DNA of 63,546 nucleotides, counting the filler, from Atractiella rhizophila (lineage: Eukaryota): assembly GCA_021432655.1 (NCBI GenBank). It is 5 parts of 4 records of this genome, joined end to end, with 100 filler letters (N's around TTAATTAATTAA, not from the genome) between each part and the next. Parts side by side here need not be neighbours in the genome. Positions count along the whole stretch, not along the records: positions 6,156 to 36,507 come from MU271678.1; 4 more parts are not named here. One strand, given 5' to 3'. The notes beneath the pieces were generated by a model, which had not been told where the DNA came from, did no database searches, and was given only the letters and a program-made list of their open reading frames with translations. Position 1 is the stretch's first letter. The number at the start of each line of letters is the position of its first letter. The position numbers and the translations under genes were made by a program. Shown piece by piece: positions 3,569 through 33,800 of the stretch.

Positions 3569-4889
3569 CTAATAAGAACGAAACCCGCTCTCATCCTTCC
3601 TATCCATATCCCCACTCCCCCGCGCCCATCCGACTCCACCACCATCCTCGACCGCCAACTGACGCTGACTAGTCGAAGCCTTCATCCCAGCCAGGGAAGA
3701 ACCATACATCTCGCTCTCCGCGCTCCTCTGCGTCGAAGTGGACGGATAAGGTCGATGACCGCTCCCCGCGGCCAACAATCCAGCCTGCGAACCCATCGTC
3801 GCCTCGCTCGCCGTCCTGTGGTTCTTCGGCCGCCCCTCCTTCCCACCACCGCCCACAGCGCTGGACCCGTCGCCCTGCTCGTCGCCCCCGTCTGGAAACC
3901 GGACTTCGTTTCGGAGCCCACTGCTCTTCGAGAACGAACGCTCGTGCCCGACCCCGACCCCGGGTGGAGCGGGAAGGTCGCTGCTGTTTCGGGCGAGGAA
4001 GGAGTTGCGATCGTACATCCCGCTCTCTCTTAGTGCTATTATCTCTCCTTCTGCGGCGTTGAAGACGGTATCGTATTGTTTGTGCGCTTCGCGTTGGTCG
4101 AGGGAATAGGTGCGGGATTTGAGGATGAAGTATAACTGGCGTCAGCGTAATTTCAGTCCTGATGCGGATGCTATGATATGAGGGGAAGGAGGGACGAACT
4201 TCTGTTAGGCCGACTACGACCCATAAGAATGCCATGACGCCAACTTGAACCCACGTCCACACCTTACAAATCGTCTCTCCCGTCTGATCATTCGCATTGA
4301 AGCCCTGGACAGTGGTTGAAGAATTGCCAGAAGCCTGTTCCGAGAATTGTTTTGAGCAAGAATCGACCGCGTCGGAATGGTTGGTGATGGAGACGATGAT
4401 CCATATGAGGGCGATGAGGAAGGTGAGCGCGACCAGGCCGGAGTTGACCCATGTGCTGCGTCGTTCGGAAACCGAAAAGTAAAGTCAACAGCTGTCTTTG
4501 TTCAGGAGAAAGGGAGGAGACGGACTATTTTCGAAAGATTGCAGGTTTTTCTTTGAAGACTCCAAAGAACCCTGCTGCCTGCGTGAGGCCGACGAGGATG
4601 GCGCAGATGCCGAAAAGGTAGGATCCGAAGGAAGGGATGGAAACGGATACGACTGTTTGCGAGGCAACAGTGGCAGCAGCATCATCAGCACAATATCCCA
4701 AAGCGATCCACCAAAGCCACAACGACAGTCATGGAATGAGGAGAGGTAAGAAGACGCACTAGACGGCGCAGCGAAAGCCAAGGCTCCAACCGTGATCCCA
4801 ATGACTGCGAACTGGACGAGAATGGCATATATCCCCCAATTAAATAATGGGACTGCCCAACAGACGTAGGCGGATTTGAGGATCCTCAT
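3569..4889 (-). CDS. Uncharacterised four-transmembrane (tetraspanin-like) membrane protein with a low-complexity C-terminal tail
   Basis: Spliced model gives four hydrophobic segments (WGIYAILVQFAVIGI, YLFGICAILVGL, LVALTFLIALIWII, WVQVGVMAFLWVVVG) and two Cys in the large loop. The tail is ORF 3569..4018. Confidence 0.65.
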
Positions 4890-10890: not shown

Positions 10891-11205
10891 ATGGAAAGTT
10901 CCAAAGAACGATAGTAAGTTGAAAACAGCTGCAAGGGATACTCAAGATGACAGATTTAGAGGATTCTGATGTAGCTAATTCATCCACTGCTTGCTAAATG
11001 TCAAGGATAATTCAGGCCCATAGATTGGTGCTAGCAGTGCTTGTATGCATTGAGACAGCTAAATATACACATTTGTAGATTATCAGCCGAACTTGCTAGG
11101 TACAAAATGAATTGCTGGCTCGAATGTACGATAAATGGTGATTGATAGGCGTCCATAATGGCACAGATATGATGAGACGATGCAAGGGGATTGTACTGTC
11201 AAAAA

Positions 11206-12884
11206 TTAGACATCCTATCCAAAGATTAGCCCGCTCCCAACAAACACACTAAAGTGAGCAGCCTACCTCAATTCCCCCAGGTTTGATGCAATAACTCGCC
11301 TGTACGACGGGAATTAATGTTATTGTGGAGAAAATGGTGTTGAATCAACTCACTTCCCCTTCTGGCATCTCTGGACTGTCAGCAAGTTTAGCTATCCTCT
11401 CCTCTCCCCTTCCTTTCCTGAGATAGATCCTCGTTGTGCTCGCATGGGCCTTCCCATAGTGATGAGCACACAATTCCCTCGGAATGAGGACTAAGAAACC
11501 CACCATAACGTGGCCACCGACAGGTTTCTTGTCTGCTCCCCCGGCAAACACCATGCTGCTCCCAGGGTCTGCTTGGACTTGGTTCGTCAAAAGTCTGCCA
11601 GGGAGTCACTGTATCAATACAAATGCAATCCCATCAAGATAAAAACCAACACGGCCACGTTGAACTCTTCTGAAATGCGAGTTAAGCGAGCTAGCATCTG
11701 ATTGAGCTTCTGCTGTCTTTCGCTAAGCTCGCCACGTCCCGAGTAGTCAACTCTGAAGAGCGCAAGAATAGAGTCTACGATCTATCCCATACATCAAATG
11801 ACTTCATCAGGAACTGGCAACGAGTAGGGAAGAAGAGGACGAACTAGCAGGCGAAAGACGCCTTGCTCTTCTGCAAACTTTCCCGCGAGGAGGTTGATAA
11901 GGTCCATTTCTGCAGTGTCGACATAGTCAGTGATTTAAAAGGGAACAGACAGATTAGAAGAGGTACGGTGTTCTGAGTTCATAGCGCGTCCAACGACGAT
12001 GTTCTCAAGCGCAACTTCACCTTCAACGTCCTTCCCAGTTGAACGCCGCTATTCAGCTTTCTATTTCTGAGAGAAAGCCAGAGAAACTCACAAAACGATC
12101 CGCAATGGATTTTACACGGTCTGGGCGGAAGGTGTTTTCAGTGTCGATGTACGCGACCTGTTACGGGAAAGAGCACAGGGCTTGGGAGGAGAATACCATG
12201 AAGAGAGTGAGCACACCTTTCCTTGGCCGCCTCCAAGGTCGGGAGGGAGCTAAAATCCAGACAAACAGCCATTAGAAATTGTTTCTAAGAGTAATTGGTA
12301 TAAAAAAACATGCTTGAGTCGTGACGCAGAGCGTATGACATAGCTGGGTCTTGCCAGTTCGAAACTCGCCGTAAACTGAACGACATGGCTTGAACGCTTT
12401 ATATCAGCTCATTTAAAACAGCTACACGTACCCTCCGTCACGCTCTGTGTGCTAACGCCGCCTCCCAGCATTGCATCGAGTTGTTTCGAACCCGTTGTGA
12501 TCATGACCTTTCCACGCAGGACAATCGTCCGTTCTTCCATCGTTACAAGAAAGAGGAATGTGCGCACCACTTTCTCACGTCTCGTGGCCACTTCAACGCC
12601 GGTAGAAAAAGAGAAAGCCGTGGGGAGGATCTTAGAAGCCGCATCCTTAATCTTGTCTACCTTTATTTCTGAAAGTCCTTTGATCTTGCATAGACTCTTG
12701 CGCGTCACTTGCAGCACTCCGACAATCGTCGCAATTCCGGCTGCTTTCAGTTTCGCAATATCTTGTGCTAAAAAGCGCCGCTGAGCGGTCTATGTTTTCC
12801 TAAACAGATAAGATGGAGCGCACCAGAAATTCCTGCCTCTTGAAGAGCGTCAATGTCAATGAAGAATTGCTCGATTTCGGCCAT
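11206..12884 (-). CDS. DMC1: Meiosis-specific recombinase Dmc1, about 11 exons
   Basis: [33 protein letters not shown], Walker [28 protein letters not shown], and the Dmc1-type TNQVQADPG / KPVGGHV. The last micro-exon ends DV-stop at 11206. Confidence 0.93.
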
Positions 12885-18026: not shown

Positions 18027-18469
18027 GTTTGTCGATGGTGGAGATCGTTGATCGTTGCCTCGTTGAGGTGGAGCGCGGAGGATTGAGGGTTGAGGGTTGG
18101 AGGAGGATGGAGTGGAGAGGATGTGGATGGAGTGTTGTGTATGATGATTGTGTTTGAGTGAGATTATCTATTGTCGGGAGCTAAGAGCAGCTGCTTTGAT
18201 GAATACTACTACATCCGTTTGTCGTTCTATGTGAAGATGGCACGCTTGATTCCACACAGTACCTGAAGCTACCCTGAATTTACTCTTTACAACAAGTTGC
18301 AACTTGCAAGCAGAATTTGACCTGCGTCATCTGCTAAAAATGCTGCGCTGCGAAACAGAACATGTCACCGTCTTGCACAAACCTTTCACGCTGAGAAATA
18401 GCCAGCTTCCGACTTCACCACACCTCAAACTTCTCTTCCATCAACACACCAACAGCTTGAGCATCCAGC

Positions 18470-20992
18470 ATGCTTCGTACCTCCCTCCTGCGCACTTCCG
18501 GTCGAGCGGGACGGACAGCTCGGGGTTTTTCGTCGACGGCGAAGGCTCGAGCAGAGATTGAACTGGAGGTGGATGGGAAGAAGGTGAAAATCGAGCAGGG
18601 TAGCGCGCTCATACAGGTCCGTCTTCTTCTTCTTCCCTAGCATAGGTACAGAGGGGACGGGACTTGATTTTGGTTGGAGTAGGCTTGTGAGAAGGCGGGA
18701 AGTAGTGTGCCGAGGTTTTGTTATCATGATAGACTTAACAGTTCGTTTTTGCATCTCCCTCTTCTCAACTGAGCTTGGGCTGATGGGTGGAATGGGTAGT
18801 GCAAGTTTCTCCTCATTTTGGTTTGAAGGGATGAATGTCTTATCCTGCTCACTGCAGTGCTGGTAACTGTCGTATGTGCCTGGTGGAGGTTGAACGAGCA
18901 CCAAAACCAATAGCGTCTTGTGCACAACCCGCCATGTAGGCTCCTCTCTCTTCATCTTTACTGTCTAATGTAGGTATGAACCATAGGCCGGGTTCAAAGG
19001 TGTGGACAAACACACCTCTCGTACACAAAGCACGGGAAGGAGTGATGGAGTTCCTTCTTATGAACCACCCTCTCGACTGTCCCATTTGTGACCAAGGAGG
19101 GGAATGCGATCTTCAGGACCAGTCTATGCGGTACGGCGCGGACAGGGGAAGGTTCCATGAGGTGGAAGGGAAGCGAGCGGTGGAGAATAAGAATTTTGGA
19201 CCGTTAGTGAAGACTATCATGAACCGTTGCATTCACTGCACCCGTTGCGTGCGCTTCGCCAACGACGTTGCTGGTATCGACGATTTGGGAACTTCGGGTC
19301 GAGGCAACGATATGCAAATCGGGACGTATGTGGAGAAGACGCTGAATAGTGAGATGTCTGGAAATATTGCCGACCTTTGTCCCGTCGGAGCCCTCACTCA
19401 CAAGCCTTATTCCTTCACCAATCGTCCTTGGGAACTGAAGAAGACGGAATCCGTCGACGTCCTAGATGCTGTCGGAAGCAATATCCGTATCGACTCCTAC
19501 GCCAATGTCGTCAAGAGGGTGCAGCCGAAGACGAACGACTTTGTCAATGAAGAGTGGATCAATGACAAAACTCGGTACTCTTATGACGCGCTCACCATTC
19601 AACGTCTTACAACACCTCTTGTCAAGAAGGGCAACAAACTTGTCCCTGCTTCTTGGCCAGAAGCTCTGGCGTCGGTCGCTCAAGGTCTTCGTCTATCGAA
19701 TGCGAAGGGTGACGAAATCAAAGCGGTCGCCGGTGGATTGGCGGATACAGAATCCCTGGTCGTCCTCAAGGATCTTATCAATACTCTGGGCTCTGAGAAC
19801 GTTGCTCTCGACGGACCTCAAGGCGACCATCCCCCTGCTCATGGTGTTGACTTCCGTTCCAACTACTCCTTCAACACGACCATTGCAGGAGTCGAGCATG
19901 CGGACTACGTTCTTCTCATCGGTACAAATCCCCGGCACGAGGCTGCGATTATCAATTCGAGACTGAGGAAGAGCTATCTGAACCATTCTGCCGATTTCGC
20001 AGTCATTGGAGAGGACTTCAACTCCATCTTCCAGTACGAGAAGCTCGGGACCGACGTCCAAGCGGTCAAGGATTTCTTCGATCCGAAGAAAGGAGTGAAG
20101 ACTGCATTTGGACAGGCATTTAGGAACGCGAAGAAACCGTTAATCATCCTTGGATCCGGAATCACCGAACATGGACAATCGGCAGAGGTCTTTGCTGCCG
20201 TCGCAAAATACGTCGACGGTCACAAAGAACAATTTATGACTCCAGAGTGGAAGGGACTCTCATTCCTCCAGCGTCTCGCCTCCCGTACCGCTGCCTACGA
20301 TATCGGTTTCGTTCCCACCCCCTCCAGCGCATCCGTGACCCCAAAATTCATCTACCTCCTTAACTCGGACGACTTCGACCCCAAGTCCATCCCTAAAGAC
20401 GCTTTCGTAGTCTATCAAGGACACCATGGTGATCAAGGAGCATCCTATGCCGATGTCGTCCTCCCTGGAGCAGCGTACACTGAAAAGGCAGCAACATGGG
20501 TCAACACTGAAGGTCGTACCCAACTAGGTCGTGTGGCTGTGACCCCACCTGGAGCCAGCCGGGAGGATTGGAAGATTATTCGGGCTTTGGGTGAAGTCTT
20601 GGGAGTCCAGCTGCCGTATGATGACACCCGTGGTGTCCATGAGAGGATGTGGCAGATCTCGCCGACCCTCATTAGGTGGGATGATCTCGAACCTGCTAGT
20701 GAGGTCGCAGTAGCGCAGGGTGTCAAGGCACTATCCTCCGGTGTTGCGGCGAAGAATTTGAAGCTGACTGGTGGGCGGACGGGACCTTTCCCCAAAGTAG
20801 TCGAAAACTTCTACGCGACCGATGTCATCAGTCGAACGTGAGTTATCATATTCCCTTTCTCAATTTTAGTTTGTGTTATGGAGGAGTACTAATGCTACTT
20901 CGCGTGATAGGTCCATTATCATGTCTCAATGCACAAAAGCCTTCGTAGAGCAGGTCCCCTTCGATAATTCGGAGCATCAGGTTGATGCTTAA
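18470..20992 (+). CDS. NDUFS1: NADH:ubiquinone oxidoreductase 75-kDa Fe-S subunit (complex I), including a predicted 1-nt exon at 18800
   Basis: Mitochondrial presequence, [46 protein letters not shown] and DLCPVGAL. Stop at 20990-20992. Confidence 0.97.
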
Positions 20993-28204: not shown

Positions 28205-30712
28205 ATGGGGAGTCGTCCAAAGAAGGCGGGGACCTCAGGAGCGGTCACGAACTACATAACTCGAACACAGGCGCTGAAACGACTGCAATGCTCTCTTGCA
28301 GACTTTCGTCGGCTCTGTATCATCAAGGGTATCCACCCTCATCAGCCTAACAGCATGAAAAAGTTGAGGGAGAAGAATAGCAAAGCGACCCCAAGTACAA
28401 GCTATTATTATGTCAAAGATGTGCAGGAATTGATTAGGAGCGATCTGCTGAGGGCATTACGGTGAGTCTTTATTTAAGGGGAAGTAGGAATTGTGTGTGC
28501 GAAATGTAGTGTGTTTGTTATAAGCTGTATTTAAAAGGCTCATTTTTGAATGCTGAAGTTGAAGACTTTCATCTTTAGTGTGTAATGGTTCCCCTGAATT
28601 GTTCAGAAGTTTAGAGACCACTCTTCATGGACATTTTGATCATGCTTTTGGCACCAACATTTCATTAAGTAACAAATGGCAAATGGTCGCAGCGTTTTAT
28701 CATGTTCAGCCAGCTGTATAGGCCGTGCCGTTTGCTAATCTAGTGCCTCTACCTCGACAGCTCATTTTGCTCTTCTCTTCGATCATCTATCAACTTGACA
28801 CTGACACACTGATAGGGAAGAAAAGGCGTACGCCAAAAAAATTGCCAAAGCAATCGCACAAGAAAAATGGCTTTCCGCTCAAAATCTCCAAGGACAGAAG
28901 GATGTCAAAGGGGTTAAAGGTTGGCGCTTAGATCTAGTGATCAAGGAGCGGTACCCTACCTTTGCCTCTCTCGTACCTCATCTCTCCGACCCTCTCTCCC
29001 TCCTTTCCCTCTTCGCCGCTCTCCCATCCACCCCCGGTACCACGCGACATTTCGAGGGGAAGGACGGGAAGGGCATTCCGGAACAAGGCGCGAATTTGAC
29101 GGATACCAGTGCACATCCGATTGGAAGCACTAGCAGTGCGGAGAGCTTGAGACTTGTGCAAGAGTTTAAAGCTTGGGCGGTGAGGGAAAAGCGATTGAGG
29201 AAGGTGTTTTTCGGGATCAAAGGTGTTTGGTGGGAAGTTGAAGTCGTGCCGGTGGGCAATGAAGGAGTGCAGAACAAGAAGGAGGGACGAGTGGTATGGT
29301 GCGAGCCTTGGGGATTTGTGCAGAATGTTCGTACCTTCCTTGTCTTCTTAGACATTGCCACACCTGAACAAGTACACGTATGATGGGCGTAGATTCCATC
29401 AGATATTGATTTTCGCATAATGGCCACCTTTCTCGAATTCTATCAAACCCTCCTCGGCTTCTCACTCTACAAGCTGTACAACGACGTCAATCTCATTTAT
29501 CCGCCAAAGGTGGACATGGAGAAGGATGGTGGTGTGTTGGGAGGGAGCGAGATTGTGCAGTTGGAGGAAAAAGAGAAGCTTTTACTTCAGTTAGGGGAAA
29601 AGGGGGAGGTCGTAAAGGTAAAATCTGGGGATGTGAATCGAGGCATCAAGGAAGTGACGGAGGCACATAAAGGTGATGCAGCTGTGCCAGTGGAGGTTGA
29701 CCGCACAGGTGGGGCAGCTGAAGGGGCATCGGAGAAGGAAGCGGTAGCAGTTGATTTCCCCTTACCTCCTGCCGAAGGGAAGGAAGGTGAAACGAACGAA
29801 CCACCACCTCCGAGCGAAGCGAATACCAACCTCTTCTCCCAGTATACCTTCTACCTCGACCGATCGGTGCCTCTCCCCGTCCTTTCTTTCCTCATTCGCG
29901 CCTTTTCAGGTCGTGTCCTCCTCCCTTCCTCAAATCCTACCCCACCTCCATCCATTACGCACTATGTCGTGGACCGCCCCAACTTCACTCCTCCCCCTAG
30001 CCTGAAGGATGCTAAGGTAGCTTATGTGCAGCCCCAATGGGTTGCGGATAGTGTAAATAGAGCCACAGTGCTCCCTACGGAGATGTATGCCCCTGGAGCG
30101 GAGCTACCTTCCCATCTTAGTCCATGGGTGGATACAGAAGCAGAGCGGAAGAGGGGAGCGTATGTGCCCGAGGAGGCATTGAAGGAGATAGGGGAGAGTC
30201 GTCGGGAAGAGGAACTTAGCGAGAGTGAAGACGACGAAGAGGCTGAGGAACGGGAAGGGATGGAACTGGATGACGCAGAAGATGGGGAGCAAGCAGAGTC
30301 GTCAGAGGAGGACGTGGACCAGCCGAAAGCGACTCAGAAAGGCAAGAAACGGTCGTTACATGAGGAGGCAGATGAAGATCAGGGTGGACGCGCAGCTGAA
30401 CTCGCTGCTGAGCGGAAAGGCCTCTCATACTCAAAATATGCTGAGGCGGCACATGGGAACCCCTCGAAGAAGCGGAAGCTGGAGAAAGACCAAAAAGCGA
30501 AGCGGAAGGCTCAAGAAGAAGCAGATAAGGAAGAGCAGAGAAAACAGGCCGAAGGTTTGCTAGAGGGGAAACAGAAGAAGAGGTTATACAGAAAGCTGAA
30601 ATTTACGGAAGGGAAAGAGAAGGTCAAGAAGGAGAGATTGGAGAAGAAGAAGAGCGAGTTGAAGAAGGCTGCGAAGCAGGAAAGAGGGAAGAAGAGACCG
30701 AGGGAGGACTAG
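28205..30712 (+). CDS. NOP7: Pescadillo/Nop7 (60S biogenesis, BRCT domain), 3 exons
   Basis: NYITRTQALKRLQCSLADFRRLCIIKGI, IKERYPTF, MATFLEFYQTLLGF and YVQPQWVADSVN. First intron 28462..28815. Confidence 0.93.
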
Positions 30713-30841: not shown

Positions 30842-33800
30842 CTAGTTGCCAAAATCGTATTCAAATGGCTCAGGCATCTCGGCTATGTCTCCTTGCAAAT
30901 GCCTTGTATCATCCACGTCGTCTCTACCAGGGGGTCCGCCCTGAACACCATCCATAGCTTGATCTTGATTGGCAGCGGGTGGAGCAGCAGCAGTTTGGAA
31001 ATCGATAAATTCGATCGGCTCGTCTGGTTTCTCATCGCGAACCACCAAGATTCCTGCGCTCCTAACTGTGTAATATTGCGCATCCGCCGCCCCACTCCGT
31101 TTTTGGAGAAGAGTCGATTTTTCTGGGTGAAGGGAGTCAGAGGAGGATGCCGGTCGAATATTGGAGAGGCTGGCTTGGACTGGTACAAAGCGAGAGGAGA
31201 TGGAGAAGCGAATATGAGGAACTTGTCCTGGTGTTACTCGAGACAAATTCTGTAGGCTCTCGTATGAAGGTTCTGCGGCTTTCTTGCCCTTCGTCTCTTC
31301 AGATTCCTTGTCCTTTTCGTTTGACTCCGGCTCATCAACTTTCATGGCATCGTCTTTCTCGGTAGAGATCTTCATCTCCTTCTCATCCTATGTAGAAATG
31401 GACATGAGAGGAGGCTTGTGGCAGGGGTAAGAAACATACCGTATCCATTGAATCCTTCTCTTTCTCCTTCTCCTTCGCTTTCGCCCTTGCCTGTGCTTTG
31501 GCTGTCGTTGAAAGAACAGCAGTCGCAACCTTCTCTACAGCCTCCTTAGTTGGTGGCTTCGTCGGAACAGGATATGCGAATGCTGAAGGCTTGATGTTCG
31601 ACGTAACCTCAAACTTGGGCACCTAAACCAAGAATTACTAGATGTCGATATCAAGAAAATGGTTAGCTTGCCTTGAGATGACGGTCAACACCAATGATAG
31701 CTGTCGGGGAGAATGCCAAGCTGATCATATGTCCCAGTGGGAACCAATACCAAAACTGGCAGAACATTGCCATTCCAACAACGGCTTGCATGTTCAAACT
31801 TCCGGTTTTGCTCTGCAGCGAAATAGTGACATTCCGTCCGCCAGCATCAATCAAGCCTTGGGAGATAGCTGCACCGAATTTAGCCATCGGATCTTCATGC
31901 TTGTCCTTGATGATCTTGGTGAAGGTTGCCCGTGCAGTAACGTAGCTGGGAAGAGTCTCGTTGCGTTGAATGAGGATCATGGAAAGAGCGATACATGCTC
32001 CTTGACGAACGTAATCGACTGGATCCTTAGTCATTGGGAGGAGGAGAGAAATGGCGTCCTGTTCATCCAATCCCATTCATGGTCAGCAACAGCAGCGCCG
32101 TACAGACGTTAAGCTAACCTCTAATCCAGTCCCAGCGCAAGCAATACCCAGAGCTAAGCTGGCACCATATCGGACATGAGGATTGTAGCTCTCGCTGAGC
32201 AGCTGTACCACTCGTGGTACCTGAGGTATAATGTCAGCTTCGGTCAGGGTTACTCTGTAGGCAGCTCACCTGCGACGGATTCCTAAATAGCAGGAACCCC
32301 AAGCTAGTAACAGCCGCTCGCCGCACATCGTCGTTAACATCCGAGACAGCGACATGAAGGAGCCGCTTGATAGCGCCGTTGTCCCCGGTCCCAGCATAAG
32401 CCAATGCCACGGTCCAGACGCCTCCATATCGTAAAATAGGATCCTACAAACTTGATCAAGCAATGGTTAGAAGAGCCAAAGAGCGAGGTACCTTCTCTCC
32501 TAACAAGGTTTCAATCATGCCTTCTGCCTCCTCCCTCTTTCCGTACCAGACCATTGCCAGCCCCATAGCCAAACCTCGAATGATCTTCTCATGCTGAGTT
32601 TCACGAGCATAACCCAACATCTCGTTCACCACCTTTCCTTCTTCACCATCTTCACCTTTCACTCCGCCTTTTCCCAACATGACCAATCCCATCGCATAGC
32701 CTGCAGCTTCACCAGCAACTGCGTCATCAGAGAAAAGGACAACTTTAAGATCTTCGTAGACCTCCCACGATCCCGAAGAGAGGTGCGCGACGCCCAGTCC
32801 AAGTGCGGCACCATGTTGAATCGTTGGTGAAGCGCCGAAAGAACGGAGGACTCGAAGAAGGAATCCTGTGACTTCAGCTTCTGGATGATTGGCGTGGACG
32901 AGTCCGAGGGCGAAGCAGGCACCTCCTTCGCTGTACTCAGACCCACCTGAACCACCCGGTGCGCTTCCGTCTGCAGATGGAAGGTACGGTCGAAGGACGC
33001 TCATCGCGCCTTGGAGATTTCCTCGATGAATGACCCCCAGAGCGGTGGTAGCGGTGAACTTTGACCAGTTCGACGCACGGGCGAGCCAGTCCAGATTCTC
33101 TCTCAGGAACTGATCTGATGTCGTTCCAGAATGAGCAAAGGCGTTCGCGAACGACATCGCAGAGTGGTAAACCGAGTTGCGCAATTCTAACGACTCCTTG
33201 ATATTCTTCAATATCAGCAAGTCCGCCTTGTTATTTCGGACCAGGAACTCGAGTTGAAATCGTGTCGACACTTCACCAGTCAGAATCTTCATTACTCGTT
33301 CCATGTCTTCTGGATCAGCCGAGTAAGACGATTCGGAGGTGAGAGAGGTACGGATATCAGCGATAAAGTCTTGTGAACCTGTGGACGAGAGGTCGAACGC
33401 TATTTGATAAGCCATGAGGACGTCAGAAGGAGTTGGGGAGGACAAGAGCTTGAGCAAAAGCTGAGAGGAGGATCCGCTAGCTGATAGGAGGACGAAGCAA
33501 CGAGTGATGGAAAAATAATCTGGAGTCGCGAGGGTCGAGAAAAGTGAAATCAAAAGGTTCAAGACCTAACCACCAGTCAGCTATTACTGCTAGAAATAAA
33601 GAAAGAAAGGCGTACCTGTTCTCTCCACTCCGCCTCCCTCTTACCTCCCCCTTCTCCTCCCATAGCTATGGCGTCGAGGACGTACTCCAGCAAACTAGAA
33701 TCCTTGGAAAGCTTGAAAGCTTTCTGTAAGACATCCAGCCGCTTCGAATCCAGAGCGAGGCCGATCGCCTGTTTGTACTCCCCGTCGTCTAGGCACGTCT

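Follow-up and report, generated by a model that had tools for sequence, protein, structure and literature searches.

How does Atractiella rhizophila keep the gene for the 75/78-kDa iron-sulfur subunit of respiratory complex I in frame across a gap that cannot be removed as one intron? The window analysed here, i. e. the whole joined stretch of 63,546 nucleotides (nt) from assembly GCA_021432655.1, carries this nuclear gene (NDUFS1/NuoG) on the + strand from the ATG at 18470, within the part that comes from record MU271678.1 (6,156-36,507). A.rhizophila is a root fungus among the basidiomycetes (Pucciniomycotina, class Atractiellomycetes). Early in the gene two coding exons are separated by 117 nt (18741-18857). 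An earlier note on this DNA, made from the sequence alone, divided the gap into a 59-nt intron, one exonic base (T18800) and a 57-nt GC-AG intron, and claimed that this base is needed to build an isoleucine codon from three exons. The layout proved exact to the base when the sequence was re-read, and the evidence presented below makes it very probable that T18800 is a real spliceosomal exon of a single nucleotide.

Transcripts contain one T between the flanking exons

Contigs of four sequencing runs (X1, X3, X5 and X7) were aligned to 18350-19250. The upstream exon ends with ...GAT AGA CTT AAC A at 18740 and the downstream exon starts with T GCT GGT AAC TGT at 18858; their translations are ...RFCYHDRLN and AGNCRMC..., respectively. 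All three runs with spliced contigs showed the joint from 18740 to 18858, with 117 nt (GT..AG) gone and exactly one extra T inserted between the two sides (depth 1072 in X3, 5.1 in X5 and 2.7 in X7). No joint lacking the T or bearing a G instead, and no intermediate with just one of the two introns removed, was listed among these contigs, from which rare variants may be missing. The mRNA reads AAC A-T-T GCT, i. e. Asn68-Ile69-Ala70. Introns 1 and 4 were confirmed by the same contigs (Table 1).

X1 behaved as DNA: it showed no joints, and all introns were spanned. Over 18350-18920 its 587-nt contig, a Logan contig assembled from raw reads (depth 235), agrees with the window at every base, without an indel. 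Two of the checks suggested in the earlier note, i. e. the inclusion joint in transcripts and the genomic bases in DNA reads, were thus both passed by the T.

X1 and X3 derive from one strain, because they have the same two sequence variants at 19029-19203. X5 and X7 represent other strains or close relatives, since several of their exon positions differ from the window. Despite these differences their joint is identical to that of X3.

The variation at 19029-19203 was seen as two contig versions in each of X1 and X3. The version equal to the window has a depth of 168.8 in X1 and 906.5 in X3; the second version (82.7 and 505.8, respectively) departs from it at seven sites, which are spaced by multiples of 3 and fall on one codon position. 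As both versions occur in DNA and in RNA, the sequenced strain has two diverged NDUFS1 alleles or copies, both of which are expressed. Several of the variant letters are common to X5 and X7; over 18350-18920 X1 lists one version only.

A further observation concerns the X7 contig, which starts at 18624 inside intron 1 and has a depth of 2.7. Intron 1 is retained in it, and both introns next to T18800 as well as intron 4 are removed. In this molecule, represented by a single low-depth contig, the twin introns did not trail intron 1.

Only one splice solution yields the observed mRNA

All possible introns of at least 20 nt that start with GT, GC or AT and end with AG or AC were enumerated (284 candidates) and tried singly, in pairs and nested. 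Exactly one combination gave the observed mRNA, namely 18741-18799 together with 18801-18857 around T18800; among the 284 candidates there was neither a single-intron nor a nested solution. This one solution needs a GC donor, and the hexamer GCAAGT at 18801-18806 is otherwise a strong donor consensus.

The twin introns resemble the rest of the gene. With 59 and 57 nt they lie within the range of the other introns (66, 51 and 73 nt), and the distance from the branch A to the 3' end is 16 nt in the first twin (CTGAT) and 15 nt in the second (CTTAT), compared with 15-18 nt elsewhere in the gene. The earlier statement that both halves are typical introns with their own branch points therefore holds for the lengths and needs revision for the branch site of the second intron. 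The motif proposed there, CTCAC, is doubtful, since it lies only 6 nt from the 3' end while the other four introns have 15, 16, 18 and 18 nt; CTTAT fits better.

When the interior of the 117-nt gap was shuffled 20,000 times, a central AG-N-G[TC] of any quality turned up in 21% of the shuffles. With the added demand for a near-consensus donor and for a branch motif on the upstream side, the share fell to 0.16%, so that the complete arrangement is more than chance. A duplication or an introner-like repeat as the origin was rejected: the twins have only 5-nt words in common, and no further copy of either is present in the window. An RNA fold bridging the gap was nothing special (z-score 0.47; 131 of 200 shuffles folded equally well).

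A crude scan of the window for exons of 1-3 nt between two intron-like units of 42-99 nt recovered 18800 and two other candidates, both on the minus strand: TGT at 11246-11248 (unit 11196-11299) and AA at 4200-4201 (unit 4136-4254), where the overlapping open reading frames (ORFs) have no Pfam match. Neither is accompanied by RNA evidence, and both are perhaps chance.

Residue 69 and the deposited protein

The gene model with T18800 encodes 738 amino acids (aa) and differs from the deposited A.rhizophila protein (P0002) at residue 69 only, which is Ile in our model and Ser in P0002. A database search supplied 120 proteins for comparison, and the motif around this residue was readable in 88 of them. 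Ile was present in 84, Val in 3 and Ser in 1, and the sole Ser was that of P0002 itself. In the remaining 32 proteins, as in the query fragment P0001, the N-terminus is truncated or the gene model is faulty; P0090, which belongs to the 32, has AGNCSMC with Ile.

Ser69 results when 116 nt are removed with non-canonical ends, and the earlier prediction that annotation tools would miss the exon is thereby confirmed. The RNA contradicts the Ser69 model, which would require a G at the joint where T is found: P0002 is mis-modelled at residue 69. If T18800 is skipped and the 117 nt leave as one piece, the reading frame shifts, as had been claimed, and the computed product ends after 86 aa.

Ile69 lies inside the motif C-x10-C-x2-C-x13-C of the N-terminal [2Fe-2S] domain (Cys62, Cys73, Cys76 and Cys90), which we take to be the site of cluster N1b. 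The conserved cysteine spacing had been put forward in favour of the one-base exon. It is present, but it does not discriminate, as the Ser model keeps the spacing too. What decides between the two models is the letter in the RNA together with the conservation of the residue.

The motif region in relatives

For relatives, DNA was available as metagenome contigs with 80 loci at 57-75% identity, among which there is no close Atractiella relative. One locus (L038) lacks the upstream part, leaving 79 readable loci. The region is dense in introns: a break immediately 5' of the Leu codon was seen in 41 loci, and one after AGNCR in 7. Small exons occur as well. One locus (L034) has a 24-nt exon at 2312-2335, and seven ascomycete-like loci (L041, L052, L055, L056, L061, L062 and L064) have two microexons encoding RYCYHE and KLxIAGNC. 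In the Agaricomycete-like loci the Ile codon is unsplit.

In three deposited NDUFS1 models, two of Rhodotorula (P0021, P0069) and one of a Tremellales sp. (P0036), 16-19 residues around RFCYH...AGNC are gone or garbled. Probably these gaps are missed small exons.

Alternative explanations

Several points weigh against T18800 as a one-base exon. X7 is recorded as a root metatranscriptome, i. e. RNA, and the type of X1, X3 and X5 was guessed. The transcript evidence consists of assembled contigs, in which rare variants are lost. In intron 3, the one with the GC donor, both branch candidates (CTTAT and CTCAC) are non-consensus. Finally, the earlier note had looked to relatives for introns that split this Ile codon, and the codon is split in none of the 79 readable metagenomic loci, where L-x-[I/V]-A-G-N-C is unbroken. 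Hence the age of the layout is without comparative support. X1 is possibly the source sample of the window; its agreement rules out an assembler artefact and does not bring in an independent strain.

The last point also bears on the simplest alternative, an assembly or sequencing error. If the assembly had lost a T that the real genome has at an exon edge, the gap would be one in-frame 117-nt GT-AG intron with no one-base exon, and a T between the two sides in the mRNA would look identical. Yet the X1 contig, assembled from raw reads, repeats the genomic sequence without an indel, and both exon edges lie outside homopolymer runs. A 117-nt intron would be about twice as long as the introns of 51-73 nt in this gene, and its complete internal acceptor-T-donor arrangement would have to be the rare product of chance found in the shuffles. 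We therefore regard such an error as very improbable. Still less can be said for the deposited model, in which AAC AGT GCT results from a 116-nt intron whose ends (TT..AG or GT..CA) are non-canonical. It reproduces P0002 with 0 differences and preserves the Cys spacing, but the T at the joint in all three spliced runs, the restriction of Ser to P0002 among 88 proteins and the boundaries themselves speak against it, so that we give it next to no credence.

Contigs give the letter at the joint and not its origin. The T could in principle come from another position with non-canonical sites, from RNA editing or from insertion after removal of the 117 nt. This is very improbable: the enumeration found no other position compatible with GT/GC/AT starts and AG/AC ends, and T18800 has a TAG acceptor directly before it and the donor GCAAGT directly after it. 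To our knowledge no insertion editing of nuclear mRNA is known in basidiomycetes. The two intron-like units in one gap also recall a stwintron, in which an internal intron leaves first and recreates a splice signal of the outer intron, and the earlier note had suggested such a kinship. As usually defined, stwintrons are excised in full, with no exonic base left. In Atractiella one base is retained and no splice signal is interrupted; with no nested solution for the observed mRNA the suggestion has to be dropped, and a stwintron is as hard to credit as the deposited model. A single-nucleotide exon thus remains by far the best account of the locus: three spliced runs, the DNA contig, the sole splice solution and Ile or Val in 87 of 88 proteins all agree with the Ile codon A+T+T.

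Possible course of splicing

Two ordinary short introns adjoin T18800, and each has a donor, an acceptor and a branch-like motif of its own. Each twin may be recognised by intron definition, which is usual for fungal introns of ~50-70 nt. The twins would then be removed successively and not simultaneously, because the 3' splice site of intron 2 and the 5' splice site of intron 3 are 1 nt apart and are not co-occupiable. Possibly the upstream intron is out first. In this case the context of the GC donor at positions -3 to -1 would change from AGT to CAT, and as CAT is slightly closer to the usual CAG, there might be a weak preference for this order. Excision of both introns joins A18740, T18800 and T18858 to ATT, the codon of Ile69.

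A more far-reaching idea is that the exon serves as a splice switch, with an obligatory recursive order of removal and, as the regulated alternative, a one-step removal of the 117 nt that brings in a premature stop 18 codons downstream and exposes the transcript to nonsense-mediated decay. Regulated skipping is conceivable because the donor after T18800 is GC and the branch site that follows is weak. We consider this unlikely. If true, the output of complex I would be set by spliceosome kinetics or by the order of intron removal, and the gene would offer a natural case of a 5' splice site that is improved only by removal of the neighbouring intron (AGT/GC to CAT/GC, the slash marking the splice site).

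Gene structure and neighbourhood

The gene is the nuclear NDUFS1/NuoG. The long exon matches the Pfam families PF10588, PF22117, PF22151, PF00384 and PF09326, and the short exon after the gap matches PF13510 (Fer2_4). The domain set of NDUFS1/NuoG/Nqo3 is thus complete, with the N-terminal 2Fe-2S, the NADH-G 4Fe-4S, the ferredoxin-like 4Fe-4S, the molybdopterin-oxidoreductase-like and the C-terminal domain. In the database protein search the top match was P0002, named NADH-ubiquinone oxidoreductase 78 kDa subunit of Atractiella rhizophila, with 100% identity over the 617 aa queried; identity to fungal orthologs was 57-70%. The gene structure is given in Table 1.

Table 1. Structure of the A.rhizophila NDUFS1/NuoG gene as modelled with the single-nucleotide exon (positions of the window; slashes mark exon limits)
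Feature	Position	Strand	Evidence
Exon 1, Met1-Gln49, presequence and start of 2Fe-2S domain	18470-18616	+	ORF; matches P0002 N-terminus; X5 contig 18451-18614
Intron 1, 66 nt, GTCCGT...GAGTAG, phase 0	18617-18682	+	GT..AG joint in X3, X5; branch candidate TTGAT 15 nt from 3' end
Exon 2, 58 nt, Cys62, ends with base A of Ile69 codon	18683-18740	+	Sequence, translation, contigs
Intron 2 (upstream twin), 59 nt, GT-AG, GTTCGT...CTGAT...GGGTAG, phase 1	18741-18799	+	Only canonical solution; branch A18783, 16 nt from 3' end
Exon 3, single T, middle base of Ile69 codon (A/T/T)	18800	+	Letter T in X3, X5, X7 contigs; only canonical position
Intron 3 (downstream twin), 57 nt, GC-AG, GCAAGT...CTTAT...CTCAC TGCAG, phase 2	18801-18857	+	Branch candidates CTTAT (A18842, 15 nt), CTCAC (A18851, 6 nt)
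Exon 4, 78 nt, third base T of Ile69 to first two bases of Met97; Cys73, Cys76, Cys90	18858-18935	+	PF13510, translation, contigs
Intron 4, 51 nt, GTAGGC...CCATAG, phase 2	18936-18986	+	GT..AG joint in X3, X5, X7; CTAAT 18 nt from 3' end
Exon 5, main body of the protein (4Fe-4S and molybdopterin-oxidoreductase-like domains)	18987-20837	+	Pfam; 100% identical to P0002
Intron 5, 73 nt, GTGAGT...TGATAG, modelled	20838-20910	+	Only donor/acceptor pair giving the 738-aa deposited C-terminus; CTAAT 18 nt from 3' end
Exon 6 with stop codon	20911-20992	+	Gene model

Neighbouring genes identified by Pfam encode a Pescadillo/BRCT protein and the proteasome subunit RPN2, at 29393-30709 (+) and 32459-33565 (-). 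Nine other long ORFs that were compared with Pfam had no family match.

Consequences for annotation

The immediate consequence is a correction of the record: in the deposited A.rhizophila NDUFS1, Ser69 should be replaced by the transcript-encoded Ile69, a residue beside iron-sulfur ligands. Beyond this single residue, an RNA-supported exon of minimal size is documented here for a housekeeping gene that is both essential and highly expressed, in a fungal class, the Atractiellomycetes, that has been little studied. Gene finders and spliced aligners that are unable to place one-base exons will produce frameshifted genes or invent non-canonical introns. For annotators, an intron whose length is roughly double the norm and whose flanks are out of phase can serve as a warning sign.

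Comparison with known systems

Exons of one nt had been described before from plants and from other fungi, and the Atractiella exon introduces no new type of mechanism; this NDUFS1 case is unreported in the literature searched. Among the matches listed for A.rhizophila no title pointed to a gene-structure paper, and among those listed for one-nt exons neither NDUFS1 nor complex I was named in titles or abstract starts.

With stwintrons and recursive splicing the locus has in common that two successive reactions would act on one gap and that an acceptor adjoins a donor as at a ratchet point. The classical ratchet point is AG/GT, with no base kept. Atractiella differs in that it keeps one base as an exon.

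In plants, a single-nucleotide exon was described for Arabidopsis APC11 (Guo & Liu 2015, PMC4674806), and 1-nt microexons of APC11 and VPS55 occur across land plants (Yu et al. 2022, PMC8831610). As in Atractiella, these exons lie between two spliceosomal introns and were mis-annotated in reference genomes, and for APC11 the authors proposed the same mechanism as is considered here, i. e. intron definition with successive removal (PMC4674806). The plant exons are constitutive. They have longer introns, are conserved among land plants and were tested with reporter constructs and reverse transcription PCR, whereas the Atractiella exon is documented by transcript contigs.

Among basidiomycetes, 13 exons of one nt, each in a different gene, were reported in the long-read re-annotation of Coprinopsis cinerea (Cell Genomics 2025, PMC12230235). 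There too, gene models contain 1-nt exons whose omission creates premature stops. In contrast to the single locus studied here, this is a genome-wide count, given in the text consulted without a description of each gene (PMC12230235).

The closest counterpart is the 1-nt exon of the Fusarium cytochrome P450 gene CYP621A, which was called the first fungal case (Nelson & Syed 2026, PMC12940212). Both are found in fungal nuclear genes, where one base stands between two short introns in a gap of about twice the usual length. In both, the base keeps a conserved motif in frame, was missed by annotation and was confirmed from public RNA reads. The two cases differ in conservation and in the type of gene. 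The CYP621A exon is conserved in at least 20 orthologs, whereas the Atractiella layout was seen in none of the 79 readable loci of relatives, and CYP621A is rarely expressed and of unknown function, whereas the host gene in Atractiella, a basidiomycete, is highly expressed and encodes a core respiratory subunit. They also differ in the splice sites: the Fusarium exon is a G in the context AG/G/GT with both introns GT-AG, whereas Atractiella has a T and a downstream GC-AG intron. Since Atractiella uses a T together with a GC donor, a single-nucleotide exon can do without the Fusarium-type context, where the G is shared by the two consensus sites.

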